Shown: positions 23,136-49,300 of the stretch, piece after piece
Numbering within the stretch: position 1 is the stretch's first letter
Layout: each line of letters opens with the position of its first letter
Assembly: GCA_002441245.1 (NCBI GenBank)
Contig: DJVP01000005.1
Coordinates: forward strand, 66,303-130,302
Direction of reading: 5' to 3'
From: Candidatus Omnitrophica bacterium UBA6253
GTDB taxonomy: Bacteria > Omnitrophota > Gorgyraeia > Gygaellales > Profunditerraquicolaceae
DNA length: 64,000 nt
Notes under the pieces: generated by a model
The model's input: the letters and a program-made list of their open reading frames with translations, nothing else
Told to the model about the DNA's origin: nothing
Databases searched by the model: none
Made by a program: the position numbers and the translations under genes

Positions 23136-23144
23136 AATACAGAT

Positions 23145-26172: not shown

Positions 26173-27157
26173 TCCGCTTGCTTTAATCTTTATTCCCATA
26201 ATAATACTGCTTTTTTTATACAAGCAGAAAAAACAGAGGTCTGCATCTGCCTTTAAGTTTTCCTCTGGAGAATTGATTGGGAAATTAAAGGGTTCTTTTA
26301 AGCTTAAACTGAGCAAGAACCTGATTTATCTGAGGTTTTTAGCAATTGCGTTGTTAATATTTGCCTTGGCCCGTCCGCAAACTCCGATAGCTGATTCTAA
26401 AATACATTCAGAAGGTATTGATATCGTCTTAGCGATTGATTGTTCAACCAGTATGCTTGCCGAAGATTTTAGGTTAGGAGGCCAAAGGCAAAACAGGATT
26501 GAGGTTGTAAAAAGTGTGGTTAAGGATTTTATCATGGGCAGAAAAAATGACCGTATTGCTATTGTTGCTTTTGCTTCCCGGGCATATACGGTTTGTCCGT
26601 TAACTCTTGATTATGGTTGGTTGCTGGATAATCTGGAAAGGGTTAAAACAGGCCTGGTCGAGGATGGCACAGCAATAGGTTCTGGTATAGCCACTTCTTT
26701 AAACCGGCTCAAAGATGCCAAGGCAAAAAGCAAGGTGGTTATTTTGCTCACTGATGGACGCAATAATACAGGAAAGATTTCACCTTTAACTGCCGCAGAA
26801 GCAGCTAAGGCTTTAAAGATTAAGGTGTATACGATTGGCGCAGGTTCAAAAGGGCCGGTGCCTTATCCGGTAAAGGATTTCTTCGGTAATACTGTATACC
26901 AGCCGGTACAGATAGATATTGATGAGGATACTCTGATCAAGATTGCGGAGATGACAGGGGCAAAATATTTTCGAGCTACGGATACAGAAAGCCTGCGTAA
27001 AATATATAAAGAGATAGATAGCCTTGAGAAGACCGATATAGAGGAAAGCGGGTACCTGGAATATAATGAATTATTTAACGTATTCTTAATCCTGGCTCTT
27101 GTGTTCTTGCTTTCGGACATTGTTTTATCTAATACTGTTTTAAGGAAAATACCATGA
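26159..27157 (+). CDS. BatA-like membrane protein with a von Willebrand factor A domain.
   Basis: N-terminal TM helix and MIDAS motif DIVLAIDCSTSM followed by VILLTDGRNN. C-terminal TM helix present. Confidence 0.8.
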   Translation: MSLHDPLALIFIPIIILLFLYKQKKQRSASAFKFSSGELIGKLKGSFKLKLSKNLIYLRFLAIALLIFALARPQTPIADSKIHSEGIDIVLAIDCSTSMLAEDFRLGGQRQNRIEVVKSVVKDFIMGRKNDRIAIVAFASRAYTVCPLTLDYGWLLDNLERVKTGLVEDGTAIGSGIATSLNRLKDAKAKSKVVILLTDGRNNTGKISPLTAAEAAKALKIKVYTIGAGSKGPVPYPVKDFFGNTVYQPVQIDIDEDTLIKIAEMTGAKYFRATDTESLRKIYKEIDSLEKTDIEESGYLEYNELFNVFLILALVFLLSDIVLSNTVLRKIP

Positions 27158-28167
27158 GATTTGCGGCAGGAAACTTTGTTTTCGGGTTTATTATCGTTTT
27201 GGCCTTGGCGCTATTTTATCTATGGGCAGCTAAATTACGAAAGAGCGCCTTAGAGAAATTCGCCCAAAAAGAGTTGTTGGGTGAATTATTATCGCGCTTT
27301 GATTATAAGAAAAGATTTATGAAAATAATACTGATAGTTTTGGCAATAACACTTATGCTTTTTGCTTTGATGCGGCCACAATGGGGTTTTCATTGGGAAG
27401 AGGTAAGAAGAAAAGGAGTAGATATTCTGATAGCCCTGGATACTTCAAAAAGTATGCTTGCGGAGGATGTAAAGCCCAGCAGGTTAGAGCGCTCAAAGTT
27501 AGCAATTAAAGATTTGGTGCGTAATCTTAAAGGGGATAGAATCGGCTTGATTGCTTTCTCCGGAAGCGCATTTTTACAATGTCCTTTAACGCTGGATTAT
27601 GGAGGATTTCTGCTTTCGCTGGATAATACAGGCATAGACACTATCCCTAAGGGCGGCACTTCTATAACCAGCGCGATAAAAGAGGCCTTAAGGAGCTATG
27701 AAGGCGGCCAGAAGAGATATAAGGTCCTCGTCATTATTACTGACGGAGAAGACCATGAAGGCGACCCTGAACAGGCAGCTGAAGAGGCTAAAAAGGAAGG
27801 AATTAAGATATTTTGTATCGGGATAGGCACTAAGGAAGGAGACCTTATACCTGTTACGGATGAAAACGGGCAGAGATTATTCGTTAAAGATAACCAGGGT
27901 AATGTGGTTAAGTCGCATCTTGATGAGGCTAGCCTCCAGAAGATTGCTTTGAATACCGGCGGCGTATATGTGAGAGCTACTAATGCCGAGTTTGGCCTGG
28001 ATTTGATTTATCGGGAAAAAATAGCCAGGATGGAAAAGAGGGAACTTGAAGCTAAAATGAACAAGCATTATGAAGAAAGGTTCCAGATATTTCTAGGACT
28101 AGCTTTATCTTTGTTTATAATTGAGCATTTTATAAGTGAAAAGAAGACATCCAGGAGCATCTCTTAG
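27154..28167 (+). CDS. BatB-like membrane protein with a von Willebrand factor A domain.
   Basis: MIDAS motif DILIALDTSKSM followed by VLVIITDGEDH. N- and C-terminal TM helices. Confidence 0.8.
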   Translation: MRFAAGNFVFGFIIVLALALFYLWAAKLRKSALEKFAQKELLGELLSRFDYKKRFMKIILIVLAITLMLFALMRPQWGFHWEEVRRKGVDILIALDTSKSMLAEDVKPSRLERSKLAIKDLVRNLKGDRIGLIAFSGSAFLQCPLTLDYGGFLLSLDNTGIDTIPKGGTSITSAIKEALRSYEGGQKRYKVLVIITDGEDHEGDPEQAAEEAKKEGIKIFCIGIGTKEGDLIPVTDENGQRLFVKDNQGNVVKSHLDEASLQKIALNTGGVYVRATNAEFGLDLIYREKIARMEKRELEAKMNKHYEERFQIFLGLALSLFIIEHFISEKKTSRSIS

Positions 28168-29041
28168 TATGAGAAGATATATATTCATTATATCACAGGT
28201 TTTATTTATTTTATCCGGGTTTTATCTATATTCATTCGCAGAAGATAGCGCTGGCCTGGTGAATAAGGCAAACAGTTTATACAGACAAAAGCGATACGAT
28301 GAGGCGATCAAATTATATAATGAGGCGCAAATTAAATCACCTGATTCCAAGGAGATTAACTATAATATAGGTATAGCCCAGTATAAAAAAGGTGATTATA
28401 ATACGGCAATCAACTTACTTGAAAAGGCAACTGTATCTAAAGATAAGATTTTAGAGTCTAAGGCAAACTACAATATTGCCAATGCAAAATATAAGCTTGG
28501 CAAGTTAAAGGAGAATACCGATCTTAAGGAAACCGTAAATTTATTGCGGCAGTCCTTGGATTATTATAAAAGGGCAATAGAGTTGAATTCTAAGGATGAG
28601 GATGCGAAAATAAACCATGAACTGGTGGAAAAAGAGTTAAAAATGCTTCTGGATAAGTTAAAACAAGAACAGGATAAGAAAAAGGAGCAGTCTGAGCATA
28701 AAAATGAGACAAAAGAAGGCCAGGGGCAGTCTCAGGAAGGGCAACAGGAAAATAAACAGGGTGGGCAGGGGGAGAAGCAACAGGCAGCTCAAGCTGAGGA
28801 GCAAAAAATAGATGAGCAAAGTAAAGAAGAGACCAGGTTGGCCCGGGAAGCTAAAGATTCCGAAGAGGGGAAAGAAAAGCAAGAGGGAGAATCAAAAAGG
28901 CAGGCCTCGGAAGAAGCAAAAGAAATGTCTGAGAAAGAAGCAAATATGCTCTTGGAAGGATATAGGCAAGAAGAAAATTCCTCCGGGAAGCTGGAGGACC
29001 GGAAAAGAGGGCCTCTTGGAGATGTATTAAAGGATTGGTAA
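28136..29041 (+). CDS. BatC-like TPR protein with a K/E/Q-rich low-complexity tail.
   Basis: TPR helices (YRQKRYDEAIKLYNEA..., YKKGDYNTAINLLEKA...) and a low-complexity region EQDKKKEQSEHKNETKEGQGQSQEGQQENKQGGQGEKQQAAQAEEQK. The real start is probably the MRRYIF Met at 28169. Confidence 0.65.
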   Translation: MKRRHPGASLSMRRYIFIISQVLFILSGFYLYSFAEDSAGLVNKANSLYRQKRYDEAIKLYNEAQIKSPDSKEINYNIGIAQYKKGDYNTAINLLEKATVSKDKILESKANYNIANAKYKLGKLKENTDLKETVNLLRQSLDYYKRAIELNSKDEDAKINHELVEKELKMLLDKLKQEQDKKKEQSEHKNETKEGQGQSQEGQQENKQGGQGEKQQAAQAEEQKIDEQSKEETRLAREAKDSEEGKEKQEGESKRQASEEAKEMSEKEANMLLEGYRQEENSSGKLEDRKRGPLGDVLKDW

Positions 29042-30906
29042 TTGATAAGATTATGAATATTATAACCAGGATTCTTAAATTCTTGATACTAAGCGCAAGC
29101 CTTCTGTTTTATGCTTTAAGCCTTCCTCCTGCCTGTTTGGCCAAAGATATTAGTTTTGAGGCGACGGTAGACAGGAACAAGGTATCTTTGGGGGATTCTT
29201 TGCAACTAGCTTTAAGTTTTAACAATGCGCAAGATATGCCCGCACCGGATCTACCATCCATGGACGGATTTAAAATTCGTTATTTAGGCCCTTCCACAAT
29301 GATGTCTTTTGTTAATGGAAAAGTCTCAGGCTCTATAACGCATAATTATGTGCTTTTACCTACGAAAATAGGAAATTTTAAGATAGGGCCTTTTAAATTT
29401 GAACGCAATGGCGATAAATATGCCTCTAATCAGTTGAATGTGGAAGTATTAAAGGGGCAGGTGCAAGGTTCTGTTGACCGGTCCGGCAGCCAGCCGGAAT
29501 CAGCACCGGAGTTAGGAGATTTAAGTAGCAGGTTGTTTGTAACAATTCAGGCTAAAAAAGATAAAGCTTATTTGAATGAAACCGTACCTTTAACCATAAA
29601 ATTATATGTAAACAGATTGAGTATAAGGGATATACAATATCCGGAGTTTAACCATGAAGGTTTTTCGGCAGCTGCATTTGATAAGCCCAGCCAGTATCAG
29701 GAGGTGCGTAACGGGGTAAACTTTGATGTCATAGAATTTAATACCTCTATTTTTGGTTTAAGGCCGAATGAGTTCAAGCTCGGGCCAGCGCATATTAAAT
29801 GTAATTTGATTATGCGTAAGCAGACGAACCGCAGGTCTACTTTTACATCCAACAGTTCTTTTGATGCGGATATATTTGATAATTTCTTCGGCAGATATGA
29901 GACTTACCCCTTGGATTTAAAATCCGGGGATATTGAATTTACTGTGTTGGCCTTGCCGCAAGAAAATAAACCCGTGGATTTCTCCGGCGCCCTGGGTAAT
30001 TTTAATCTGGATATAACAGCTGCGCCCTTAGAGGTGAAACTGGGTGATCCGGTTACCCTTAAGATGATTGTCAGTGGGGAAGGAAATTTTAACACTGTTG
30101 GGGTCCCCAAGCTTAAATCAGAGAAGGGTTTTAAGGTTTACGAGCCTCAGATAAAGCAGGAAACCAATCAAAAGATATTTGAACAGATAGTCATGCCGAT
30201 GAGTTTGGAAGTTAAAGAAATTCCTCCGTTATCTTTTGATTTTTTTGATATTGGTTCCGGAGAGTACAAAACTATCACCCGCGGCCCGTTTCCCCTGATA
30301 ATAGTTAAGCCTGAGAAGGAAGAAGAATCTAAAATAGTCGAGAATAAACAGCCTGCCCTTGCTATTTCCGCCAAGGAGGAGAAGCTGGGAAGGGATATTA
30401 TCTATATTAAGGATAGCCCCGGTATTTTGAAGAAGAAAAACGATTATCTTTATAAGAATAAAATATTCCTGATGTTCCAGGTCCTCTTGCTGTTGTTCTA
30501 TTTGATTGCGGCTATAATTTATGCAAAGAAACAAAGATTAAAAACAGATTTAAAATACGCCAGGGGACTTTTAGCTCCCCGTAAAGCCAAGGCGGGTTTG
30601 CGCCAGGCAAAGAAATATCTAGATAAAGCAGACGCGCAAAAATTCTACGATATTTTATTCATGACTATGCAGGAATACCTGGGGGATAAATTTCATTTGT
30701 CCTCAAAAGGGATTACTATAAGTATTATAGATGAGTATTTACGTAAAAATGGTGTAGCTGAAGATGTTTTAACAAGACTAAGAGATCTCTTCCGGGAATG
30801 CGATATAGTAAGGTATGCGTCTTCGCAGTTAACCAGGGAAGATATGCGCGCTTCTTTAATTAAATTAGAAGAAGCGATAGATTATTTGCAGAGGAAGAAG
30901 GCATGA
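29035..30906 (+). CDS. BatD-like large membrane protein.
   Basis: Signal/TM N-terminus, repeated beta domains, and a C-terminal TM helix IFLMFQVLLLLFYLIAAIIYA with a cytoplasmic tail. Position and size of 623 aa fit BatD. Confidence 0.6.
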   Translation: MVIDKIMNIITRILKFLILSASLLFYALSLPPACLAKDISFEATVDRNKVSLGDSLQLALSFNNAQDMPAPDLPSMDGFKIRYLGPSTMMSFVNGKVSGSITHNYVLLPTKIGNFKIGPFKFERNGDKYASNQLNVEVLKGQVQGSVDRSGSQPESAPELGDLSSRLFVTIQAKKDKAYLNETVPLTIKLYVNRLSIRDIQYPEFNHEGFSAAAFDKPSQYQEVRNGVNFDVIEFNTSIFGLRPNEFKLGPAHIKCNLIMRKQTNRRSTFTSNSSFDADIFDNFFGRYETYPLDLKSGDIEFTVLALPQENKPVDFSGALGNFNLDITAAPLEVKLGDPVTLKMIVSGEGNFNTVGVPKLKSEKGFKVYEPQIKQETNQKIFEQIVMPMSLEVKEIPPLSFDFFDIGSGEYKTITRGPFPLIIVKPEKEEESKIVENKQPALAISAKEEKLGRDIIYIKDSPGILKKKNDYLYKNKIFLMFQVLLLLFYLIAAIIYAKKQRLKTDLKYARGLLAPRKAKAGLRQAKKYLDKADAQKFYDILFMTMQEYLGDKFHLSSKGITISIIDEYLRKNGVAEDVLTRLRDLFRECDIVRYASSQLTREDMRASLIKLEEAIDYLQRKKA

Positions 30907-31685
30907 AAAAAATAGTTTTGGCTATTCTGTTGATATTTTTTGTGTTGGGTTTTATCTTAACCTTTTACCTACGCAACTCTTTGGCTCAAGAAGCAGTAAA
31001 TACGCCAGGCGCTGTCTTTTATCAAGCAAATATTTATTATCAGGAAGGTAAATATGACGAAGCTATCAAGGATTATGAAAGGCTTATTGGCCGAGGATTA
31101 GAAAGCGGTAATCTTTATTATAATTTAGGCAATAGTTATTTTAAGAAAGGCGAACTTGGATTGGCTGTTTTAAATTATGAGAAAGCAAAGGGTTTTATCC
31201 CCAATGATGGCGATCTGAAATCTAATTATAGCTATGTCCTGCAGGTATTAAACTTAGAACCCGAGCTTTTTGGAAATTGGTTTGATAAAATGGTTTATGT
31301 TTTGTTCCAGGGGACAACAATCGATTCTTTAACAATTCTATTGTCTTTTATCTATGTTGTTTTAATAGTATTTCTTATTTTAAGCTTATTTTTTAACAGG
31401 TTGAAACGATTTTCCGGGTTAGTTGTTTGCATCCTTGCAGCGTTATTCATATTATCAGCTTACGCGCTGAATAGGAAAATTAATTATTTGAATAAAACCG
31501 CGGTTGTTATAAGTAACGAGGCAGATGTCAAGTTTGAGCCATTAGAAAACGCCACGACATACTTTAAACTTAGCAAAGGCAGCAGGGTTGAGGTAGTGGA
31601 GAAGGTAGAAGGTTGGTATAAAGTGCGGCGTTTTGATAACAAACTTGGCTGGGCAATTAGAACTGCTTTTGCAAAACTAAATTAA
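30903..31685 (+). CDS. BatE-like protein: TPR repeats, TM helix and a C-terminal SH3b domain.
   Basis: TPR helices (YQEGKYDEAIKDYERLI, YNLGNSYFKKGELGLAVLNYEKA) and an SH3-like C-terminus (VVISNEADVKFEPLENATTYFKLSKGSRVEVVEKVEGWYKVRRFDNKLGWA). Confidence 0.6.
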   Translation: MKKIVLAILLIFFVLGFILTFYLRNSLAQEAVNTPGAVFYQANIYYQEGKYDEAIKDYERLIGRGLESGNLYYNLGNSYFKKGELGLAVLNYEKAKGFIPNDGDLKSNYSYVLQVLNLEPELFGNWFDKMVYVLFQGTTIDSLTILLSFIYVVLIVFLILSLFFNRLKRFSGLVVCILAALFILSAYALNRKINYLNKTAVVISNEADVKFEPLENATTYFKLSKGSRVEVVEKVEGWYKVRRFDNKLGWAIRTAFAKLN

Positions 31686-31834: not shown

Positions 31835-31925
31835 GACAAATGCGGAAAATATGCTATACATATAGTATATTCAGTACTTTTAGTAACTGCTAAAACTAAT
31901 GAGTTGCCCTCACAACTAAAGCGCC
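31835..31925 (+). promoter_or_regulatory. Promoter (TTGACA...TATACA) and conserved 5'UTR of the MerR-like gene. The same ATATGCTATACAT...AGTACTTnTAGTAAyT block is duplicated upstream of the paralog at 37306.
   Basis: TTGACAAATGCGGAAAATATGCTATACAT followed by AGTACTTTTAGTAACT. Compare 37222-37290: GATATGCTATACATGCAGTATGTTTAGTACTTATAGTAATTACT. Confidence 0.45.
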
Positions 31926-32153
31926 ATGGAAAAGAAAACCATATCCGCGCAGGAAATAGTCTCTAAATTCAATACGCCATATCAAACAGTAAATTATTAT
32001 ACTGCCATAGGATTGCTGCCGGTTGCCGGAAAGATAGGCAATAAGCGCATGTATGAAGAAGCGGTAATAAAGGAGCGGCTGCAGAAGATTTCGGAGCTGG
32101 CGAGGGAAGGATATCCTCTTAATTTGATTCGCAAGAAACTGTTAGGAATGTAA
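31926..32153 (+). CDS. Short MerR-family HTH DNA-binding protein (DNA-binding domain only).
   Basis: ISAQEIVSKFNTPYQTVNYYTAIGLLPVAGKIGNKRMYEE matches the MerR N-terminal HTH signature (...tlRyYe..GLl.p.r...g.R.Y.e). At 75 aa it has no effector domain. Confidence 0.65.
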   Translation: MEKKTISAQEIVSKFNTPYQTVNYYTAIGLLPVAGKIGNKRMYEEAVIKERLQKISELAREGYPLNLIRKKLLGM

Positions 32154-36593: not shown

Positions 36594-36944
36594 GTGCAAA
36601 GGAAGGTTATCTTGGCTGTCAAATTATTTTTACTTATATTTTGCGGCATAGGTGGTTATCTTTTAATTTCTAATTTGATGCTCAAGGAATCACTTAAGAA
36701 GATAACTAAGGCGGTAACAATTGTAAAAAACAAAGACCCCCAGAAGCATAAGAAATTAGAAGAAGACATAAGAAGAAAAATGGAGGAAAAATACCGGGCA
36801 GATATGATTTCTTATAAAGTCGTGATGAAGAGACTAAAACAGGAGCAAGACAGGCAGAAGAATTCATCTGGAAAGGTAAATACTTTGAATAAAAAGGATA
36901 AAGCAGGAGCCGTAAAAAAGGAGGCTATAGATGGACCTCGGTAA
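36594..36944 (+). CDS. Small single-pass membrane coiled-coil protein with a GTG start. It has a paralog in the C-terminus of 37794..38786.
   Basis: TM helix LFLLIFCGIGGYLLISNL. The motif KMEEKYRADMISYKVVMKRLKQEQDRQK matches LEEKYRADMVSYKATAMRLQEIEKKDREK at 38680-38770. Confidence 0.5.
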   Translation: MQRKVILAVKLFLLIFCGIGGYLLISNLMLKESLKKITKAVTIVKNKDPQKHKKLEEDIRRKMEEKYRADMISYKVVMKRLKQEQDRQKNSSGKVNTLNKKDKAGAVKKEAIDGPR

Positions 36945-37206: not shown

Positions 37207-37305
37207 ATTCTTTAGAATTGAAGATATGCTATACATGCAGTATGTTTAGTACTTATAGTAATTACTAGAATAACTAAGTTATTTTTATTTGTGCAGGTAA
37301 ACGCC

Positions 37306-37533
37306 ATGGAAAAGAAAGTAATATCCGCGCAGGAAATAGTCTCTAAATTCAATACGCCTTATTATACGGTGAATTATTATACCGCTATTGGCCTGCTGCC
37401 AGTTAGCGCCAAGGTGGGCAATAAACGTATGTATGAGGAGAGTATGGTAAAGGAACGCTTACAGAAGATTTCTGAATTATCCAGGGAAGGATATCCCCTG
37501 AATTTGATACAAAAAAAGCTTTCCGGCGCCTAA
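37306..37533 (+). CDS. Short MerR-family HTH protein, a paralog of 31926..32153 with about 84% aa identity.
   Basis: MEKKVISAQEIVSKFNTPYYTVNYYTAIGLLPVSAKVGNKRMYEE... The track start at 37291 (MQVNAMEKK) is probably an upstream extension. ATG 37306 aligns with the paralog start, and its upstream sequence GCCATGGAAAAGAAA matches. Confidence 0.65.
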   Translation: MEKKVISAQEIVSKFNTPYYTVNYYTAIGLLPVSAKVGNKRMYEESMVKERLQKISELSREGYPLNLIQKKLSGA

Positions 37534-37565: not shown

Positions 37566-37739
37566 TTGACAAATAAATATAATATGTTATACTTTTATTG
37601 TGACAGGAACAAAAAGATCCGAAAAGGTAAACTCATAGTAATATGGGGGCGCAAAGCCAAGGGTCCTGAGGTTAAGGATAGCCAGGTTGCCGAAGATTAG
37701 GATTTACCCCGGTTGGTGAGTTTACCGGGGTTTTTTTTT
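37566..37739 (+). ncRNA. Candidate small RNA or cis-regulatory leader of about 140 nt. It has its own sigma70 promoter (TTGACA-16-TATACT) and an intrinsic terminator (CCCCGGT...ACCGGGG + T9).
   Basis: Promoter at 37566-37593, predicted TSS near 37600. Terminator stem at 37707-37713 / 37724-37730, T-run at 37731-37739. GGTAAACTCA (37625-37634) is complementary to TGAGTTTACC (37717-37726), which overlaps the terminator 3' arm and gives a possible antiterminator. Not assignable to a known RNA family by eye. Confidence 0.45.
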
Positions 37740-37793: not shown

Positions 37794-38786
37794 ATGCCAA
37801 GGCTGCCGAGGATAAATTTAGAAGGTGCGCTGTATTATATAACTACTAAGGCAGATTATAAACTTAATCTTTTTAGGGATGATAGCGATAAAAGTCGCTA
37901 TCTTTTTTTTATCTTTGAATATAAGGGGCTATATAATTTTAAATTGTATTCTTTTGCCCTGACCTCTAATGAAAGCCACCTGCTTATAGAGCCTTCCCAG
38001 CAGTTTACTGTTTCCCAGATTATGCATGATGTGAATGCCAATTATACAAAATACTATAATAAAAAATATGAAAAGAAAGGCCATCTTTTTGAGGAAAGAT
38101 TCAAGGCAGTCTTGATTGAAAAACAGGGGTATTTGCTTGAGATGACCCGTTTTGTGCACCGCATTGTTTTAAAAGACAATCCACCGTTGCAGTTAAAGGA
38201 TTATAAATGGAGCAGTTATTTGTCTTACCTAAAAACTGAACAGGATAAAAATATTAGCGCCAATGTTGATTGCGAAGAAGCCTTAAATTTATCCTCTTTG
38301 CCTTTGGAAGGCAGGCATGCAAAGTACCAGGAGTTTGTGGAAAAGGCCAGCCTGACTGACCTGGAGGCTTTTGAAAATAAAATGTACAGGGCCTCTGTTG
38401 TAGGAAGCGAAAAGTTTGTGGAAAGGATAAGGGAGATTTTAAAAGCCGCCGCGGAGGCAGGGCAGGAACAGCCGGATGGGAACGCGGAGTTGTTCCTGGA
38501 AAAAAAGAAAAGAAGCCTCATGGTTTATATTTTAGTTGTTTTTATATTGGCATCCTTAGGGGCAGGCAGTTTTCTTCTTTCGGGTAACGCAAATCTAAAA
38601 CGCGAAATTAAAGAGGCCGCTTTGGAAAAAGATGAGATTTTTGCAAAAGATATTATCGCCACAAAGAAAGAGATCAGCAGGGAGCTAGAGGAAAAATACC
38701 GCGCGGATATGGTTTCTTATAAGGCTACTGCGATGCGGCTTCAGGAGATAGAGAAGAAAGACAGGGAAAAAAGGGAGAAACTATGA
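37794..38786 (+). CDS. Fusion protein: an N-terminal IS200/RAYT-like (Y1 HUH) domain with a degenerate HUH motif, a TM helix, and a C-terminal coiled-coil segment paralogous to 36594..36944.
   Basis: NESHLLIEP aligns to the IS200 HxH box (hIHmLlEiP) but reads Ser-His, not His-x-His. The RAYT-like distal region is HLFEERFKAVLIEKQGYLLEMTRFVHRIVLKDNPPLQLKDYKWSSY. TM helix MVYILVVFILASLGAGSFLL. Shared motif EEKYRADMVSYK. Confidence 0.6.
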   Translation: MPRLPRINLEGALYYITTKADYKLNLFRDDSDKSRYLFFIFEYKGLYNFKLYSFALTSNESHLLIEPSQQFTVSQIMHDVNANYTKYYNKKYEKKGHLFEERFKAVLIEKQGYLLEMTRFVHRIVLKDNPPLQLKDYKWSSYLSYLKTEQDKNISANVDCEEALNLSSLPLEGRHAKYQEFVEKASLTDLEAFENKMYRASVVGSEKFVERIREILKAAAEAGQEQPDGNAELFLEKKKRSLMVYILVVFILASLGAGSFLLSGNANLKREIKEAALEKDEIFAKDIIATKKEISRELEEKYRADMVSYKATAMRLQEIEKKDREKREKL

Positions 38787-39205
38787 CCTGTGATATGGAT
38801 AAAAGAGGCATGGGGATATTATTCATCTGCGCCTGTTTTATTTTATGCCTGGATTTAGTTTTTGCCAAGAATGAGGTTTATGATGTTCCTGATCCTAGCA
38901 AGTTGGTGTTAGAAGCCCAGAAGATGGTATCAGTTGGAGAGTTGGCAGCTTATGAGCAGTTACCCGTAGAGGAAAGCTCAAGAGATGGCTATTGGTGGAA
39001 TAAACAAGATAGAGATGAGAAACTGGAATATGTCAAGGGGCTTATTGCAGGGTTTAAGCTGACTGACAAAAAACTTTCAGCAAAGAAAGTAGTTAGGGTT
39101 CTTGACAGGGAGTATAACCCCAGGGATAACCCCCTGGATATTAAGATGGATAAGAGCGTAGAAAGGATGTTTAACATTGTCATTAAGGAGATGATGTTAA
39201 AATGA
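38783..39205 (+). CDS. Hypothetical secreted protein.
   Basis: Signal peptide MGILFICACFILCLDLVFA. Overlaps the upstream gene by 4 nt. Confidence 0.45.
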   Translation: MTCDMDKRGMGILFICACFILCLDLVFAKNEVYDVPDPSKLVLEAQKMVSVGELAAYEQLPVEESSRDGYWWNKQDRDEKLEYVKGLIAGFKLTDKKLSAKKVVRVLDREYNPRDNPLDIKMDKSVERMFNIVIKEMMLK

Positions 39206-39720
39206 AAGCAGCCATATTGATTTTAACGGTTTATGCTGCATTTTTATTGGCGTTTCCAACCAATACTTATTGTGAGGACAGTCCGTCTTCGGGTGTAATT
39301 ATAATTGGTTCTTCCGAGGCCAGTTCATCTGAAAATCAAGGTTCCGAGAATCTTTCTTCCGGTAGCGAAGACTCTTCTAAGCCGGCGGCAGATGAACCAG
39401 CTGCCGCTCTTCTTTATGAGATTAGCGGCAGCAAAATAGGAAGTACCAGAGTTTCGCAGGAGGTCACCCTTCCATCAGCCGGGGAGGTTATGTTTGTAGA
39501 TGCCGGGATAACAGGAGCTTGTACCATTGTCCGGGTTGATAAAAACGGAAAAGAAACGCAGGTGTTAAACATGATCCCGGATCGGGCGATTGGGCAAAGG
39601 CTGCCTAAGGGTACTTATAAAGTGTACCCTGAGGATTTAGATGGCAGTTTTCCGCTTGATAAACTGACGGCAAAAGTACAGGTTAAACTGATTGAAGGTA
39701 CAACAGGAGGCGCGCAATGA
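39202..39720 (+). CDS. Hypothetical secreted protein with a Ser-rich linker.
   Basis: Signal peptide MKAAILILTVYAAFLLAFPTNTYC, then a Ser-rich low-complexity segment (SSEASSSENQGSENLSSGSEDSSKP) and a beta-rich C-terminal domain. Overlaps upstream by 4 nt. Confidence 0.45.
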   Translation: MKAAILILTVYAAFLLAFPTNTYCEDSPSSGVIIIGSSEASSSENQGSENLSSGSEDSSKPAADEPAAALLYEISGSKIGSTRVSQEVTLPSAGEVMFVDAGITGACTIVRVDKNGKETQVLNMIPDRAIGQRLPKGTYKVYPEDLDGSFPLDKLTAKVQVKLIEGTTGGAQ

Positions 39721-40376
39721 GGAAGATATTAATATGCGTAGTCTCATTATTGATGCTGTTTCTAAATGCAGGCGTTATTTATGCAGGCGCCTTTTTATCT
39801 CCGGAGAAGACAAAAGGGGCCCTCAGGGAAGAGATTCCCAATGAGGGTTATGAAAATGATTCAGCGGATAAAAAAAAGGCTTTTGAAAATTTTAAGGCTA
39901 CAAGAAAACTGTTATATGAAAAAATGATTAAGCGCACCGGCGACTGCAGGGATGAGTTGGATAATATGTTTCTTATGGTAAACAACCTTTTTAAAAAGGC
40001 TCGCGAGGAAAAAGATATTAAAAAAGAAAAAGAGCTGGTTACGGTGATGAGCGATTATAACAGCGTGCTTGGTGACTTGGGGCTTATGCAGGTAGTTTTA
40101 GACCTGGGGAAATTCGCTGAAGGCGATAAGTTTATAGAATATTATGTGGTTATGGAAAACGGTTTTGAGCGGTTGAAGGGAAACTTCAGCTTAAAAAATG
40201 AAATATTCTTGGGCAGGATAGATGCTTTAACGAATCAGGATGCCTTGCGTTATGAGAAAAAGCTCTTAAGGATCTATAGGGATTATTTTGAGTATGATCC
40301 AAAGATTGACAGGATGGTTGAGATAGAAGATGCGCCTAAGCAGGAAAAAGGCAAGCTTAATAAAAGGGGAGGATAA
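39717..40376 (+). CDS. Hypothetical secreted alpha-helical protein.
   Basis: Signal peptide MRKILICVVSLLMLFLNAGVIYAGA. Overlaps upstream by 4 nt. Confidence 0.45.
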   Translation: MRKILICVVSLLMLFLNAGVIYAGAFLSPEKTKGALREEIPNEGYENDSADKKKAFENFKATRKLLYEKMIKRTGDCRDELDNMFLMVNNLFKKAREEKDIKKEKELVTVMSDYNSVLGDLGLMQVVLDLGKFAEGDKFIEYYVVMENGFERLKGNFSLKNEIFLGRIDALTNQDALRYEKKLLRIYRDYFEYDPKIDRMVEIEDAPKQEKGKLNKRGG

Positions 40377-40378
40377 AG

Positions 40379-43300
40379 GTGTCCGGGCGTAATCTAAAGA
40401 ATATAGGTATATATCTTGCGATCTTAGCCGCAGCTATCTGTTTGCCGGGCGACCGTTTAAACAGCGCGGATGCGCTTTATACATTTACCCAGTCAACCTG
40501 GAGCGCTGGCCAATCCTCTGCAAGCGCTGTCCATCCTACAAACCAGTCAAGCTGGGACTCTTATTACTCAAAAGATGATTATGCAACTACCACGGAAACC
40601 GACGGGTATTTGACTCTTGCTCCTGATACAGCTACTTTAACCGATACTACGGATGTGGATTTTGATAAAGGTGAGATGGAAAAGGTGGTTGTGGATGGTA
40701 CCGGCAATGATGCATTGTTACAGGTTACTCCTTCTGTGGCAGATCCGTTTGCCTCAACACTCGGAGAATGGCTTACCCTGCCTGCGCAGCCAAGGCCGGA
40801 CAGGTTTACGGTATTTTGCCGGGCAGGCACGGTTGTATATTGCCTATTTGCAACAGGAGACGGAAGGCAGTTCGGGAAATTTATTCCGGCTACGGGAAAA
40901 TGGGTAATGCTTGCTCCTTTACCGGCGCCGGCTGCTGCCGGCTGTTGTATTGCCTGGGACGGAGAGGCGGTTTTTGCCTTGCGCGGAGAGGGTTCTAAAC
41001 AGGTATATAAATACACCCCTTCAACTGATACCTGGGCGGTTTTTACTTCTTTATCAAAGGGCGTAGAATACGGGGCGGCAATATGCGCCACAGGGATTAT
41101 TTCTACCAAGGTGGGAAAATTATTTGTCCTTTTAGGCGGCAATACCACAGATTTCTTATGTTTTGACCCTACTATAGGAACATCCGGCGTATGGAAAGGC
41201 GCATCCAGCGCTCCGGCAACTGTAGAGGCTGGAGGCAGGTTAGTTTATCCGGGCTCAGGGAATTACATTTATGCCTGCCGCGGCCAGTCAACAAGTACTA
41301 TCTGGCAGTATAGTATCTCTGCTGATGCCTGGGATACAACGACTCCGGATCTTCCCGTACCAACTGAAAGTACAGCAGGTTATGAAGCAAGGATGTGGAG
41401 CGCCTCAAATATGTTTTGGCCGGGAACAGGGGATTATATATATGCGGCTATGACATATTATTGCTATAACAAGTCCAACATAACTAATTACCAGACATTC
41501 TGGCGCTTAGGGCCGCTTAGCGGTACGCCTGCATGGGAAAGGCTGGCAGATTGCCCGCGTTATACCGATAATAAAGGGTTTATTTTATATGACCCTGACG
41601 GCGCTGGAACAGAGATACAGCTTCTTTCAGGAAATAACTATACCAATCCCTGGCATTATAATATTGCCAAGAATAGATGGAAGGAGTTAACTCAGCCTCT
41701 GTGGAATTCATCCAGTTGGGGTAGGGATATATATTGGGTAAAGAACCATACTCATTCAGATATTGTTTTAGGCTCAGACGGGTTTGATTATATATGCATA
41801 CTCGATCATACTTCCAGTAATCAGACTAAGCCTGTAACCGGGGCCTCATGGGAGACTTACTGGAGGAGGTTAAACCCGTATGATACAAAATCCTGGGCAA
41901 CAGGCACAGTTTATGCAGAAGGGGATATAATTACAGGCACAGACAGCCTTGATTACAGGTGTATAAGGCGCCATTTATCAGCTGATACAAATAAACCTAT
42001 AACCGGGGCTTCATATTCCACATACTGGCAGACCCCTGCCGTAACTACAAGAGGCTCTGCCTGGATAAATGCCAAGGCTTATGTATCCGGGCCTTATGAT
42101 GATTATCTCTATTGGTGGGGAGGATATTATAATTACAATTTCTGGAGGTATAAAATATCAACGGATACATGGGAGCGTTTGGCTGATTTGCCCTGGAGCG
42201 GCAGTTATAGCGGTGCGAATATGACAGATATAGGGGACGGATATTTATATTTCCACAGAGGGAATAACGGTTATAATTTCGCGCGTTATAATATGTCGAC
42301 TGATGTATGGGAGACGCTTACAGATTCACCTAATTCTGCCGGTTTTGTCTATGGTTTTGGGGTGATAGGGGTTATATCAAAGGCTGACCGGGTTCTAGGC
42401 AGTGATGGCCTTGGGTATATATGTAAAAAGAGGCATGTCTCAAGTACACTTAATAAGCCTATAAGCGGGGCTAACTGGGCAAAATATTGGGAGCTTAATG
42501 GCTCGACCACTGATTGCGTTACTTGGGTTGAGTCTAAGGATTATGGCCCGGGATTAGAAAATATCAAGCCGTCAATAGTAGTGGGTACTGACGGTAATGA
42601 TTACCGGTGCATTAAGAATCATATATCCGCAACTTCCAGTTGTCCAATTACCGGCACAACCTCTACCTGGCAGACTTATTGGGTTGCTACAGGGACAACA
42701 GGGCAGGGTGATACATGGGCAAGCGGAACCATGTATAACTCGCGCACCGGCACAGTTGGCCATTATAAATTTATTTTTGGATTTCCAGGTTATAGCACAT
42801 CTTATTGGTACCGGTATGACCCGATAGATAATACCTGGCTTACTTGCGAAAATGTGATTACTTCTATTTATGGAGGTGAGGCTACTTGGACAGGGCTTAA
42901 TGCTCCTGATAAAGGAAGATATATTTATCTGGAACGAGGGCATGGGGGTACATATTTCTATCGCTATGATATTGAAATGGATGGCTGGGTCCGTAAAACA
43001 GATAGTTTTATCCCTACCTATTATCATTATTCGGCAGGAGGGCTGGCAAATGACGGAAGCTCTCAATATATTTACCATTTATCCGGTTATCATGAAACGC
43101 CTTATGATTACAGGCTTGAGAGGTATGACACATCAACTGATTCCTGGAGCGAATTTGCTTCCTTACCGTTTTGTTCTATATACAGGGCTGTATGCCAGAC
43201 TCCGGATGCTATATGGGCATCCCCGTATTACGGCAATGACCAGTTGATGAAATACGATTTGACAAAGCCTACGCATAACCAGCCGGGTATTTGGGAAGAG

Positions 43301-46300
43301 AGGGTGTATGATACCTGTTATTCGTCTTATGCTGATGGTAATATCGCGGTGGACAGTAACGGGTATAATTATATGATCTTTGGAGATATGTATTATTATA
43401 CAAACAGTAATATATGGATTTTTGACACAAATGCAAAGCAGTCAAAGATAGTGGGAAGCGATGGCGCTGATTATGATTGTATCTTAAGCCATACCTCCAG
43501 CGCTGATAATTACCCGACAACAGGGGCAAATTGGACAACTTACTGGCAGACATCCCGCTCAACAGGTAAAGGTGTAATATGGACAGATAGCACAGGGTAT
43601 TATTGCTCAAAGCATGCCAATCGCTGGAGCGGTTTGATCAGGGCGCCGTTTTATCTGGGGCCGGGCACCAAAGGTCAGTATATGGCCAATGAGAATTCTA
43701 TATATTTCCTGGAAGGCAAGAATACCAAATATGTATGGCAGTATGATATTACTAATGACCGCTGGTTAAGGGCCAAGGATACCTTGACAGTTGTAAACAG
43801 GGGTTCTGAATTAACCGGCGGATGCGGGGTGAATATTTCAGGACATGAGAGCCCGAGGGATGTGCTTTTTTGCCTCGGAGGTAATGGTGCAACGCAGTTT
43901 AACCTGTATTTTGTCGAGCCGGGGTATGATTACTGGACCTCTTATCTTTCTGCGCTTGACGGCCACTCTTATAGGGGCACTAACAGTATGACGTATTCAT
44001 CGTATGACAACCGGGTATATAAATTGCGCACAGAGATTACCAGCACTTGTTATGTATATAACCCGGAGCAGGATACCTGGGGTACGATTAACCCGGTAGG
44101 TACAGGAGGCTCTTCAGGCACCACTTATACCTGTGATGAGTCAGCGGTATTATATTACCCTAATGACGGGCAGAAATACGTGTATTGTATGACAGGAGAC
44201 GGCAATTACTCCCTTCTGCGTTATGATATAGATAATTTAACATGGGAGGAATTGGAACCGCCGCCTGCGGTTATTTCTAGTTATGGTTCGGCAATGTCCA
44301 GCGTGGGAAATGATTATATATATATATTTAATGCTACCCAGATGGATTATCTTTTCAGGTATCATAAGACTGAGAATGAGTATGATATACCGGCATATCT
44401 TCCGGTTGCCCTTGATGAAGGAGGGGTAATCTGCGGGTATAAGGGGAATATATATTATTTGTGCGGAGATTCAGGGGCATTCTATAGGTTTAATATAGGC
44501 CAAAAGAAATGGGGAGTTTTGGCAACCTGCCCTTCTACTATGCCCAATGAAGACCCATGTATGAAGGCAGTGGAGTATGAAGGGGATGTAAGTATCTACG
44601 TAACCGGAGGCCAGGGTACGCAAACATTTTACAGGTATTCTGTGGCTAATGATGCCTGGGAGACATTGGAGCCGCCTTCTTATAGCTGGGGCTGGGGCAA
44701 TGCGATTGAACATGTTTATGGCAGCAGGTATATTTACGCTATGCGCGGCGGGGCAGTCAGTTTTTGGAAATATGATATAGCAAATAATGATTGGGATACC
44801 CTGGCTGATCTCCCGACTACAGTAGGCAGGGGCGGCGCGCTTACATATCCTGATAAAGGTAATTATCTATATGCATTATCAGGGAACAGGAGTTCAAATT
44901 TCTACCGGTATAATTATACCACAGATACATGGACTACTCTTAATCCCTGCATGGTTAAGATCCTTGATTCGCACTCCGAACTGATATATCCGGGGTTCGG
45001 CAATTACCTGTATGTATTACACGGCTCAAGCTGGGGGGATAGCTATGAGTCTTATACTTATATGAGGTATGAGATAAAATCGGATGGAACAGGTACCTGG
45101 AGCGAGCTTGCTCCGGCCTCATTCGGGGTTGACCATCCCGGCAGTATGATCTGGCCGGGTGGCGAATATTATTATGCCACCAAGGGTAATGGCAGGCTTG
45201 AGCTTGCCATGTATTATGCGTTTTGTTATGGCACTTACATTTCAGGTATAAAGCCGGTAGGCGCCCATTCAGGGTGGGGTAATGTCAGCTGGACCTTTAA
45301 TGACACACAGGCAGCTGAGGTGTCTTTCAGGTCAGGCAATAAAACGGATTTATCAGATGCGCTTAGCTGGGACTTGTGTTCGGATATAGTGAATGGGGCT
45401 GACCTAAGCACTGCCTCCTCAATCAGCGCGCAGGATGTATATATACAGTATAAAATAGGGTTTTCTACTGATAATCTTTTACAGCTTCCTAAAATATCAG
45501 ATGTAAATATCAATTATGAGTTTTATCCTCTTAAGCAGGAGGTTGTTTCTTCGCCTTATAATACCTCATTTGCCACTAACAGGCTGGTAAAATTTGAATG
45601 GGCTGATCAGCAACTGACAGGAACAGATGTACGTTTTAAGATACGTACCGGAGCGGACCTGGCAAGTTTATTAACCGCATCATGGTATGGCCCGGCAGGC
45701 ACAACCATTGAACAGTTTACCTTCAATGATAAAGAGGATTATGTGGCAAATTCAGAGGTTTTCTTTACCGGAAGCTCAATAAAATTATACAAAAAACTGG
45801 CGGATTTTACCTATTCTGAAACACTCTATGTGGATAATACCGGGGGCGCGGCAAAGACTGATTCTGTAGTAAGCATTATTATTTCATCAACTAACAATCA
45901 TTTCTGGAACCATATAAAGTCAGACGGAGCGGATATGCGTTTCCACGACGGCACGCAGGAGTTGAGCTATTATCTGGTTAGCTTTGACAGTGTGAATAAA
46001 GTAGCAGAGATAAACGTGCATTTTCCCAGTATAGGAGCAAATTCTATTAAAACTTTTTATATGGTTTATGGCAGCGAGGATGCCTTGTCCGCAAGTGACG
46101 CCACTTATGTGAGCAAGCCCGGGGACGGCCTTGTGGGTTATTGGAAGTTTGATGAAGGCGCAGGGCTTATGGCGTATGATTCTTCAGGAAACGGCAATAC
46201 CGGGGCGCTGTATCCGACCACCAAGAATATGCCTACCTGGGATAGTAATGGCAAGTACGGTTCCTGTATTTATTTTGACGGTATAGATGATTATGTCAGG

Positions 46301-49300
46301 GTGACTGTGCCGGATTTAGGCACTGATTATACTATGGCATTCTGGGGTACAATAGATGAGGTGCCTATAGCCAGCAACAGTTGGCAGGCAGCTATGGGTT
46401 CTCAAACTAGCTATCCGGTTGTCTGGTTAAATCCGAATAACTGGATGTACCATTACTGGTATGATTCCAAGAATGCCAGCCATGGAGATAATTTCTCATA
46501 TCATACAAAAAGGGATGAAGTCTGGAGGCATTATGTAGTAATTCATGATGCTTTGGGATACCGGGCATATACAGATGCAGCTTTAAATCGCGATTACAGA
46601 AGTTTTATCTATACATCCAGGGATGTGCCAAGTATGCAGTGGGATTTTGGTCGCTATTTCAATAGTACTTCCTATAACTGGAAAGGCAAACTTGATGAAA
46701 TCGTCCTTTATAATAAGGCATTAACAGGCATTGAGGTAGGTTATTTATATCAGGGTATATCCAGGGATTTTACGTATGGAGTAACCTTTGGGAGTAATGA
46801 GACAGATGCAACATGCGCCAGTTTAGTATCCGGAGGCTGGCAGAAAAAGATTCCTGTGCAGGTAACTAATGCCGGAGGTTTAAAAAGCAATGCCATCATA
46901 AGGATTGATTTAGGCAAATGGTATGAATTCTGGGCGCATGTAAAGAGCGACGGAAGCGATATCCGCGTGGTGGATTCGGATGATTCAACAGTTTTAAGTT
47001 ATTATATCCCTGAATGGGATTATGCTAATAAGAAAGGTTTTGTGCTTGCCAAGACAGCCTCGCTTGCGGCATCCAGTACAAAGACAGTTTATATTTATTA
47101 CGGCAACAGCAGTGCGGTATCGGCTGCTGATTCATCCAGCTTTATGGGCCTAGAGGAAGGTTTTAACAGTTGCAACCAGGTTGCAGGTGATTCTACTGCG
47201 CTTTCAGGATGGTTGTATAAAATTCCGCTTATGCTTAAGAATGATTCAGGCGCTCCCCAGGGGCAGGCATTGGTAGTGGGTACGGACGGCAAGGATTATA
47301 AGTGTATTAAAAGCCATAGCTCTACTACTTTTGATAAACCGAATGTAGGGGCAAACTGGGCAACATACTGGCAGGATAATTCCACTACCGGTAAAGGGGT
47401 TACCTGGGCTACCGGGATTGCGTATAGCAGCAGCCCGGCTGTGGTCAGGGTGGATATGGAGGATAGTTGGGATAATTTCTGGGCAAATGTAAACAGTGAT
47501 GGTTCGGATGTCCGGATAGTAGCATCTGACAACGAGACGGTAATGACGTATTTTCTTGATTTCTTTGACGCGGACCTTAAGCAGGGCAGCTTTTTGGTAA
47601 GCGTGCCTTTTATTAATACCGCAGCCGAACAAAAATATTGGTTATACTACGGAAAATCCGATGCCACCTCTTTGAGCACAAACAGTTTTCTCAATCCCCT
47701 TAAACAGGTTTCCAGTACTCCCACGCAGGTATCGCGTTCAGGGGCAACATTTAACCCTGACTGGCAGTATAAGATGGATTTTACAGTAAGCAATGTGTCA
47801 ACAGACCCGGATAATGTTGTAAACAGGTGTGTCAATATACAGATACCTTCTACCTGGACGAGTTTTTGGTCCAATGTGCGCTCTGACGGCGGGGATATCC
47901 GTTTTTATGACGAGAATGTAACTTCAGGTGACCCCACTTACCTATATTATGATATTGATTATTTTGATTACGATAAAAAAACCGCCAGTATTGATGTGCG
48001 CATCCAGAGCCAAAATACAGTCCCTATAACTACCTGGCCAAGGACAATATCCCTTTATTATGGAAACCCATTGGTACTTACCGACTTTAATAATATATAC
48101 AACGCTTACGATCTTTATATGTACAGTGCTGTAGATGAAACAAGATTTACCGCAGGAGGCGCGGCAACATCCGATAAATCACCCATTATAAATCAAGGGT
48201 ATGTTACCTTGTATAACAATAGCGATGCCTGGGATTCTTATATTAAATGGAACGGAACAGCCTTTGCAAGGACAGCAGGCAGGACCTTCCAGGCAAAGAT
48301 ATACCCTAGTTATAACGCCCAGGTAATGATTGGCTGGAAGGATAATGAAATCGGGGTATCGTATTCAAACCTCATATATGGGATTTATTTTAACAACGGT
48401 TCAATGTATATCTATGAAGACGGTTCAAACGTCTATAGCTGCGGCACATACATTAGGGATACCTGGTATGATATCAGGATAGAGCTGAAGGTAATGGGCG
48501 CGCTCTATTATTACAAGAAATCCGAAGATGTGGACTGGACGTTACTTTATACTTCTACGTATTCAACAGAAAGCAATTTAAGGCCGCATATAGTCAATGA
48601 TAGAAGGGATTATTTTACGCGTACGACTGATTGGAAGGTGTTCTTGAATATGACGTATGATGTAACAGTTGGCTTGGGAGACATCATAAAAGGAATTACC
48701 AATACCTTCTCTCTTAATGAATATTATCAGGATAATCCGGTTATTCAGCCTTTAGGCGGTGTTTTTTATGACAGTAACCTTGCTTCTATTGTTGAGACAT
48801 CAACTGTCCCGGCGGGATCCGGGCTAAAACATCAGATTTCCCCTGATGCCTGGAACTGGTATTGGTATAACTCTACGGCCATAAGCAAGGTGGTGGGCAC
48901 AGACAACAAAGATTATAAATGTATATTAAGCCATACCTCAAGCGATTCCACCAAGCCTATAACCGGGGCCTTATATGAAACATACTGGCAGGATAATTCT
49001 ACTACAGGTACAGGTTCTGTCTGGGCCAGTGGAACCGCGTACAATAGTATTTCAACAGGCTGGAACCTGGCTACAGCCGGCTATACGCAGGCAAATACCG
49101 GAGCGGAGATTAATACAAACCTGGCAAGCTTCCAGACTTTATTCCCATCAGGGTCATTAAATTTCAGGACATATTTGCATTCAAATGACGGTACATATAC
49201 CCCTGAATTAGATAATATTGCTGTGGCTTTAAATGCTTCAGAGACATTTTATACGGCAAAAGATGGAGCTGACGCGATTAATGCTTTAAATTGCGATATC

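Follow-up and report, generated by a model that had tools for sequence, protein, structure and literature searches.

Seven loop-inserted, putatively circularly permuted relatives of CBM5/12 in a giant Omnitrophota protein

We analyzed 64,000 nucleotides of contig DJVP01000005.1 (positions 66,303 to 130,302, forward strand) from the assembly of Candidatus Omnitrophica bacterium UBA6253 (GCA_002441245.1), referred to below as the window. From 40379 to 64000 on the plus strand, the window is occupied by a giant open reading frame (ORF) carrying seven copies of a small module related to the carbohydrate-binding modules (CBMs) of families 5 and 12 (CBM5/12). The frame opens at nt 40364, has its first GTG at 40379 and runs past the window end, so that it is incomplete here (>7,879 codons; >7,874 aa from the first GTG). 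The N-terminus is a hydrophobic signal/anchor segment. Pfam models along the ORF detect Kelch repeats, at least six DUF2341 stretches, Laminin_G_3, Kre9_KNH, PA14 and LVIVD repeats, and a Reelin-subrepeat-B-like sandwich.

A preceding sequence-only reading of this DNA had noticed a motif recurring in seven places, and both of our searches bore this count out. A regular expression for the motif located copies at aa 470, 525, 679, 741, 1031, 2306 and 2845 of the giant ORF and no further copy in its remaining ~5,000 aa. For a hidden Markov model (HMM) we took 77 modules from foreign proteins and none from the window, and ran it on all six frames of the window. It returned exactly seven matches, all in plus frame 2, at 65–78 bits each (independent E-values 2e-22 to 2.5e-26), in agreement with the approximate positions first noted. 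Modules 1 (41756..41923; aa 465–520; 68.4 bits) and 2 (41924..42091; aa 521–576; 71.8 bits) sit in tandem in the A-B loop of Kelch-type blade 7. A second tandem pair, modules 3 (42386..42547; aa 675–728; 67.5 bits) and 4 (42572..42745; aa 737–794; 69.0 bits), occupies the A-B loop of blade 9, and module 5 (43442..43609; aa 1027–1082; 65.1 bits) lies in the C-D hairpin of blade 13. Module 6 (47267..47434; aa 2302–2357; 66.8 bits) interrupts the third DUF2341-type sandwich unit at its beta1-beta2 loop, and module 7 (48884..49051; aa 2841–2896; 77.8 bits) follows 'SPDAWNWYWYNST' in a further beta-sandwich domain. All seven are on the plus strand.

The conserved unit proved longer than the about 35 aa originally assigned to it. 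The motif as such stands, but every copy runs on past '...TYWQ' through a linker of 6–10 residues to an invariant trailing W...Y strand, which brings the unit to ~56 aa; the end previously set for the region, 49035, falls 16 nt short of the end of the last module. At twelve positions all seven copies have an identical residue (G, D, Y, C, H, S, P, G, Y, W, W, Y). Identity among the copies is 34–62% in protein and 52–65% in DNA; they are therefore old duplicates rather than a recent repeat or an assembly artefact.

Modules 1–5 are hosted by a Kelch-type blade region (40841..45283, plus strand; aa ~160–1640) of about 25 blades of 44–55 aa each, which scores 81 bits with Kelch_6 (cut-off 25.3), 44.7 with Kelch_1 and 23.9 with Kelch_4. 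Modules 1–2 are flanked by the strand-A-like 'RDIYWVKN' and strand B 'YLYWWGG', and modules 3–4 by 'GVIGVIS' and 'YKFIFGF'. Module 5 separates 'IWIFDTNAKQ' from 'HANRWSGLIRAP'. The proposal that the propeller carries inserts thus holds, but they are located within blades (A-B loops and one C-D hairpin) and not between them. With the modules excised, each host blade aligned contiguously with a homologous protein: blade 7 with residues 553–617 of the paralogue P0008 (37% identity, E = 1e-15), blade 9 with P0155 494–551 (38%, E = 1e-9) and blade 13 with P0157 683–754 (33%, E = 4e-13). P0008 carries modules of its own, at aa 117–172 in an N-terminal pre-propeller domain and at aa 480–536 in the A-B loop of its blade-6 equivalent, and both sites are empty in the window protein. 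Removing the inserts scarcely lengthened the Pfam Kelch matches, and a blade HMM did not pick up strand A. As both tests were uninformative, the nesting in blades rests on the periodicity and on the junction-spanning homologue alignments. The A-B and C-D connections share one face of a propeller with four-stranded blades, and modules 1–5 would therefore be expected to project from one propeller face.

Module 6 is hosted by the third copy (47189..47701, plus strand; aa 2276–2446) of a repeated DUF2341-type unit with the pattern 'W-x-Y-K-x-hhhhh-N ... loop ... hhhhhh ... FW..V.SDGsDiRf ... YYG', where it fills the loop joining the first two strands. The orthologue P0003 (60% identical) contains the same unit with a clean 51-residue gap at this site ('...KIPLMLKNNSGSDFGTVDDPDPAMVRVDME...'). 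The Pfam envelope of DUF2341 (PF10102) starts at 'SDGSDVRIV', downstream of the module. The repeated unit includes two strands upstream of the Pfam part, and AlphaFold 2 (AF2) folds both as one domain (predicted template modelling score, pTM, 0.78). The earlier claim of a module inside DUF2341 therefore applies to the extended structural unit, as indicated by the empty site in P0003 and by the AF2 model, and not to the Pfam model itself.

The host of the seventh copy is a third domain type that the sequence-only reading had missed, a beta-sandwich distinct from both Kelch and DUF2341 (48704..49258, plus strand; aa 2781–2965). Related giant proteins contain this domain once each, in conserved form. 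Without the insert, aa 2781–2965 match this domain end to end in 18 distant homologues by BLAST (41–49% identity), and a multiple alignment of six of these homologues places a clean 60-residue gap between '...W.WYW.NGS' and 'W....GY..ANT' at the module site.

In AF2 predictions, module 6 folds by itself with a predicted local distance difference test score (pLDDT) of 82.6 and a pTM of 0.63, based on a 37-sequence alignment. The trailing W and Y take part in beta-bridges, and the blocks holding them average a pLDDT of 85–86. For aa 2270–2450, comprising the DUF2341-type unit together with module 6, pLDDT was 88.8. The host strands lie at residues 16–23 and 90–95 of this model with the module between them, and the module shows the same secondary-structure pattern as in isolation. 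The alignment used here consisted of whole units plus six modules, as MAFFT runs mixing modules with DUF2341 units placed units onto the insert. Foldseek found no meaningful match for the model of the unit with its insert in the PDB.

Comparison of related proteins shows that orthologues gain and lose entire modules. Database proteins closest to the giant ORF (60–83% identity) are named 'DUF2341 domain-containing protein' and come mostly from Candidatus Omnitrophica. The window protein, P0152 and P0153 each have seven modules. P0154 has nine, the two extra ones at the module 3–4 site resulting in four in a row at aa ~735–912, and P0003 has five in 2,560 aa, its module-6 site being empty. When the first 3,000 residues were aligned five ways, every indel of at least 20 residues corresponded to a whole module (+61 and +60 in P0154, −51 in P0003). 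Modules were absent from 18 more distant giant homologues of ~30% identity (P0155–P0172) and from the remaining weaker matches (P0173–P0190). The modules are conserved to the same degree as the rest of the protein (80/84, 74/75, 68/68 and 60/62%), and we regard the module as a unit of evolution that is subject to selection. For five of the seven window modules, the best foreign, phage-like module outscores every sister copy. These paralogue-versus-foreign scores are compatible both with one acquisition followed by old duplications and with several acquisitions. As a side observation, two GTDB species representatives with orthologues are labelled 'uncultured Planctomycetales', and the near-identical orthologues P0152, P0153, L032 and L033 are labelled Candidatus Paceibacterota, Candidatus Omnitrophica or 'uncultured Planctomycetales' depending on the source. 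At least some of the labels of these metagenome-assembled genomes must therefore be wrong.

The relation to CBM5/12 emerged from a search with the Pfam model, a check that had been suggested together with the original observation. The giant protein matches PF02839 (CBM_5_12) significantly (31.9 bits, E = 1.3e-7; gathering cut-off 26.2), and tandem modules 1–2 alone also exceed the cut-off (31.7 bits). Canonical CBM5/12 domains start with an N-terminal W..G..Y strand, followed by a V..G..Y.C...H hairpin and then P...W. The best-matching stretch (aa 506–536, profile positions 2–31) extends from 'W.TG.VY' behind module 1 into module 2, so that the trailing strand of module 1 doubles as the canonical leading strand for module 2. 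Isolated modules align to profile positions 13–43 only, at 17–20 bits. Together, these matches suggest that the canonical first strand is located at the C-terminal end of the module. The W..G..Y element is found on the C-terminal side in all seven copies, and the isolated copies 5, 6 and 7 have no such element upstream.

The same arrangement was apparent in profile searches of the PDB. The top sequence for a native-order profile of 84 diverse family members was 1ED7, the chitin-binding domain (ChBD) of Bacillus circulans chitinase A1 (E = 0.009). The match consisted of two out-of-order pieces, profile 47–57 ('aWatgtsYssg') aligned with chain 1–11 ('AWQVNTAYTAG') and profile 8–26 aligned with chain 17–35 ('NGKTYKCLQPHTSLAGWEP'). 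We then shifted the trailing segment to the front of all 84 sequences in silico and searched the PDB anew. The re-permuted profile gave one collinear match to 1ED7 (profile 2–37 to chain 1–35, E = 3e-5, 27.4 bits), which takes in Y-x-C-x(3)-H-T-S...P. All seven copies retain the CBM5/12 core residues Y, C, H, S, P and W, which align with 'YKCLQPHTS...P' of 1ED7. Further matches of the re-permuted profile were sub-threshold and included an intradiol dioxygenase, a Vibrio chitin-oligosaccharide deacetylase, NodB-homology proteins, CbpD and GbpA; the majority are CBM5/12-bearing or chitin-active, interspersed with chance antibody matches. A profile of the seven window copies ranked antibody heavy-chain variable (VH) chains on top, with 1ED7 at E = 0.5. 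Profile positions ~30–57, 'YW..(x)..TG.G..W..G..Y', falsely match VH framework 2, 'W(V/I)RQAPGKGLEWVS.I.Y', below threshold. This chance likeness to 'YW..QAPGKGLEW' is therefore a trap for PDB searches with the module motif.

Re-permutation also raised the PF02839 score of every comparable window module: from 18.6 to 30.4 bits for module 1, from 11.7 to 20.1 for module 4, from 20.3 to 21.0 for module 5, from 17.1 to 21.9 for module 6 and from 19.5 to 26.5 for module 7. Two of the seven (modules 1 and 7) then pass the cut-off, and the matches of re-permuted modules 1 and 6 span nearly the full model (profile 1–43 or 2–43 of 44). PF02839 is the sole Pfam family matched by any of the 84 family modules; 18 match it and 66 match none. 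Of 144 isolated modules in database relatives, 79 have the trailing strand only and 35 the leading strand only, while 10 carry both and 20 neither. Both phases thus occur naturally. In many relatives the modules form tandem arrays, where the strand phase is ambiguous. Tandem duplication followed by a new choice of ends is the classic origin of circular permutation. Judged by these sequence comparisons, the modules are homologous to CBM5/12 and putatively circularly permuted.

To assess how widespread the family is, we conducted an exhaustive HMMER search of 1.84 billion cluster representatives. It yielded 1,511 proteins at E ≤ 1e-3, 438 of them at E ≤ 1e-10, and the relatives that we looked up were unnamed or annotated as 'hypothetical protein' only. 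Many of the relatives are phage-like, among them tail proteins bearing 3–8 modules. A phage family of ~280 aa (phrog_12985, with an N-terminus like head-tail adaptor Ad3) has one module at residues ~66–128 and occurs in the IMG/VR loci L002–L012 and L019, with P0079 and P0091 among its proteins. Its matches are ~40 residues longer than the covered PHROG stretch (P0091 14–262 versus profile 5–210), which suggests that the module was inserted in this family as well. A related 323-aa 'structural protein' (phrog_399) has two modules and exceeds its profile by ~100 aa in length. With one narrow peptide pattern, 30 module-carrying viral contigs were obtained from IMG/VR, and a Foldseek search of BFVD identified the 'tail tubular protein B' of an uncultured marine virus (E = 4e-4, TMq 0.68, 38% identity). 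The module is frequent in phage virion proteins, where it likewise appears to be an insert.

The 40 kb upstream of the giant gene are of Gram-negative type, with an outer-membrane efflux protein, sensor kinases and a Bat operon. The latter, a complete MoxR-BatA/BatB-BatD-TPR/SH3 ('Bat' aerotolerance-like) operon (TPR, tetratricopeptide repeat), lies within 22143–31685 between the sensor kinases and the secretin locus; a Rotamase_2/TPR protein is encoded in the same region at 24026–25225. Directly ahead of the giant gene are genes for an ExeA-like AAA_22 ATPase, a PilQ/GspD/MshL-type secretin that reaches the cut-off of none of the PilQ, GspD and MshL models, a TPR protein and a Y1-transposase-like protein. 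Three small ORFs at 38783–40376 (140, 172 and 219 aa) with overlapping stop/start codons adjoin the giant gene. They encode Sec-type signal peptides, and neither a prepilin motif nor a Pfam or NCBIfam match was found in them. An MSHA pilus of the MshQ kind would be expected to come with an operon of prepilin-type minor pilins. We rejected an MshQ-like identity, given that the small upstream ORFs are not prepilins, the DUF2341 region has no NCBIfam match and the secretin is below the MshL cut-off.

A c-di-GMP-I (cyclic di-GMP) riboswitch aptamer (37616..37694, plus strand; Rfam RF01051, 59.9 bits, gathering cut-off 35) is located in the 850-nt gap upstream of the co-directional run 37794 → 38783 → 39202 → 39717 → giant ORF. 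The ~72%-identical contig L001 has a conserved counterpart in the corresponding syntenic position (4498–4575, 58 bits). This arrangement suggests that the giant gene may be switched by c-di-GMP. In V. cholerae, gbpA, encoding a chitin-binding colonisation factor, is also preceded by a c-di-GMP-I riboswitch. Two intergenic copies of a ~300-nt direct repeat with 78–79% identity lie at 31845–32140 and 37220–37520, the first ahead of the AAA_22 ATPase gene (32210) and the second ahead of the riboswitch; the repeat may be a duplicated promoter or leader region. The ORF at 37794–38786 starts with an N-terminal Y1_Tnp domain (IS200-like/REP-associated tyrosine transposase); a predicted membrane segment comes next, and the tail is charged. 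This tail ('EEKYRADMVSYKATAMRLQEIE') recurs in the small ORF 36594–36944 as 'EEKYRADMISYKVVMKRLKQEQ'. ORF 37794 is apparently an odd domesticated transposase-like protein heading the giant-gene operon.

A secretin/peptidyl-prolyl isomerase (PPIase) locus upstream of giant genes in Omnitrophota was described by West-Roberts et al. (bioRxiv 10.1101/2023.11.21.568195), who proposed a role in adhesion or predation for the giant proteins. The locus described here resembles theirs in its secretin, its ExeA-like ATPase, its TPR and Rotamase_2 PPIase genes and its giant multi-domain protein related to adhesion and carbohydrates. Kelch, DUF2341 and CBM5/12 are not mentioned in the main text of that paper, and the module is specific to one lineage, as the 18 related giants P0155–P0172 are without it.

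Taken together, we consider it likely that the module is an autonomous, circularly permuted domain of ~56 residues from the CBM5/12 superfamily that is inserted into loops and provides multivalent adhesion to polysaccharide, with a ligand that need not be chitin. The permutation would bring the termini of the domain together, which would allow it to be spliced into a surface loop without breaking the host. In the window protein, its sites are two Kelch A-B loops, each taken by a tandem pair, a C-D hairpin of one blade, the beta1-beta2 loop in a DUF2341-type unit and a loop of the third sandwich. The multi-copy modules would bind cell-surface polysaccharide multivalently, each with low affinity, and thereby help the giant secreted protein to attach to another cell or polymer surface. 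A giant protein at a secretin locus, multiple CBM-superfamily modules on its loops and relatives in phages make multivalent polysaccharide attachment the best-supported reading, in keeping with the adhesion or predation role proposed by West-Roberts et al., and the modules themselves are, we infer, glycan-binding.

Several results weigh against this reading. Single modules in native order score only 11.7–20.3 bits, below the PF02839 cut-off, which we attribute to their circular permutation, and module 3 has no PF02839 match in either native or re-permuted order. Sequence homology (PF02839, 1ED7) supports the proposed CBM5/12-like fold, but Foldseek did not confirm it and recovered no CBM5/12 structure from the PDB with the module model (best E = 3.3). 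The small size of the loop-rich 56-aa domain and its permutation may explain this miss, as sequential aligners are weak for such domains, although such an account is no evidence in favor of the fold. A tblastn search of the module against 50,697 isolated phage genomes gave no match, and the phage link therefore rests on metagenomic viral contigs. Finally, the residues proposed for chitin contact in the ChiA1 ChBD are Trp687, His681, Thr682, Pro689 and Pro693 (Ikegami et al., as cited in PMC2265269). The equivalent of Trp687, two residues before the invariant Pro, is T, N, N, S, N, D and T in the seven copies and Asn in the family consensus. As this position is never aromatic, we do not call the modules chitin-binding.

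The missing Trp is shared evidence for the most serious competing explanation, namely a genuine nested domain without a carbohydrate role that serves as a structural spacer or stabiliser or in protein-protein contacts, oligomerising or docking parts of the giant protein or the virion. The lack of a Foldseek match between the module model and any CBM in the PDB points the same way, as does the presence of phage modules in head-tail adaptor-like and 'structural' proteins and not in fibres alone. However, the sole detectable homology is to CBM5/12, the conserved aromatics (Y, W/Y, YW, W, Y) are characteristic of surfaces that stack against glycans, and the module occurs in multiple copies on a secreted, adhesin-like giant protein; we therefore regard a non-carbohydrate role as rather unlikely. 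Ordinary chitin-binding domains, targeting the protein to chitin specifically, are more improbable still. The best PDB relative is indeed the chitin-binding domain of chitinase A1, and the His681 and Pro689 equivalents are invariant in the seven copies (that of Thr682 is mostly T/S). Yet none of the seven copies has a Trp687 equivalent, their strand order is permuted, the 40 kb upstream showed no chitinase, lytic polysaccharide monooxygenase or N-acetylglucosamine-utilisation genes, and relatives occur on the particles of phages, which target the envelopes of bacteria or archaea. 

It is slightly less probable again that the module is an unrelated small fold that resembles CBM5/12 by convergence or only at the level of a motif. 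The failure of Foldseek to recover a CBM5/12 domain, the sub-threshold individual Pfam scores and the modest PDB profile E-values (3e-5 at best) would fit such a view. The 35 collinear residues matched after re-permutation, the predominance of CBM5/12-bearing or chitin-active proteins among the further sub-threshold matches, even beside chance antibody hits, and the systematic rise in scores, which is not expected of chance motifs, argue for homology. Finally, nothing was found in favor of the segments being elaborated loops or extra strands of their hosts, or a chance motif, and we consider this reading ruled out for practical purposes. One 56-aa unit occurs in three unrelated host folds, is matched seven times by a foreign profile, folds alone in the case of module 6, has clean empty sites in homologues and is carried by 1,511 database representatives. 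The claim that the modules are nested domains was thus upheld.

The ChBD of chitinase A1 (CBM12; PF02839, SMART ChtBD3) remains the best and only family-level sequence relative of the permuted module, which it resembles in size class (45–56 aa) and in the core W..G..Y / V...G..Y-x-C-x(3)-H-T/S-S ... P ... W. The module described here differs in its permuted order, an extra 'x-Y-W' extension, a linker of 6–10 residues before the relocated strand, the lack of a Trp687 equivalent and of a Foldseek match, and in being a loop insert and not an appendage at the end of an enzyme. CBM_5_12 domains have been reported in (pro)phage tail fibre proteins, e.g., the tail protein of a P. aeruginosa PA7 prophage (bioRxiv 10.1101/2025.01.20.633936). 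As in our IMG/VR and BFVD relatives, a CBM5/12-type module is found there on phage host-recognition proteins. Those domains are detected by the standard Pfam model and are presumably in canonical order, while the present subfamily is mostly invisible to Pfam (66 of 84) and typically nested. The closest functional analogy for the phage relatives is provided by immunoglobulin (Ig)-like decoration domains, likewise small accessory beta-domains on diverse virion proteins. Fraser et al. (J Mol Biol, 2006) reportedly described such Ig-like domains on phage virion proteins and proposed weak carbohydrate adhesion for them. They have another fold and are usually terminal additions, at times made by frameshifting, rather than loop inserts.

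None of the ingredients is new, as CBM5/12 domains, CBMs on the tail proteins of phages, domain nesting and circular permutation are all well known, and no paradigm is changed by our finding. Our literature search found no description of a permuted CBM5/12 domain; its coverage was incomplete, which makes this weak evidence of novelty. The combination of a permuted CBM5/12 subfamily that evades Pfam with a loop-insertable cassette in phage virions and one lineage of giant proteins appears to be undescribed. With 1,511 representatives, the domain subfamily delimited here is sizeable, and standard annotation overlooks most of it (18 of 84 modules with a Pfam match). With both phases in one family and empty and filled orthologue sites, it offers a clean natural case of putative circular permutation coupled to domain insertion, useful for studying the origin of insertable domains and for protein engineering. 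The 56-aa modules are small, expressible pieces for ligand finding. The finding also connects the surface of giant proteins in Omnitrophota with a module that is in use on the particles of phages. More speculatively, and with considerable doubt on our part, the modules could be a separate family, for the most part unannotated, and serve as a general 'insertable adhesion cassette', permuted via tandem arrays, pasted into loops of phage virion proteins and, in a single Omnitrophota lineage, of a c-di-GMP-controlled giant protein, and recognising a non-chitin glycan of prey or host envelopes. If true, this family would merit a CBM family of its own and would provide a handle on what the giant proteins bind.

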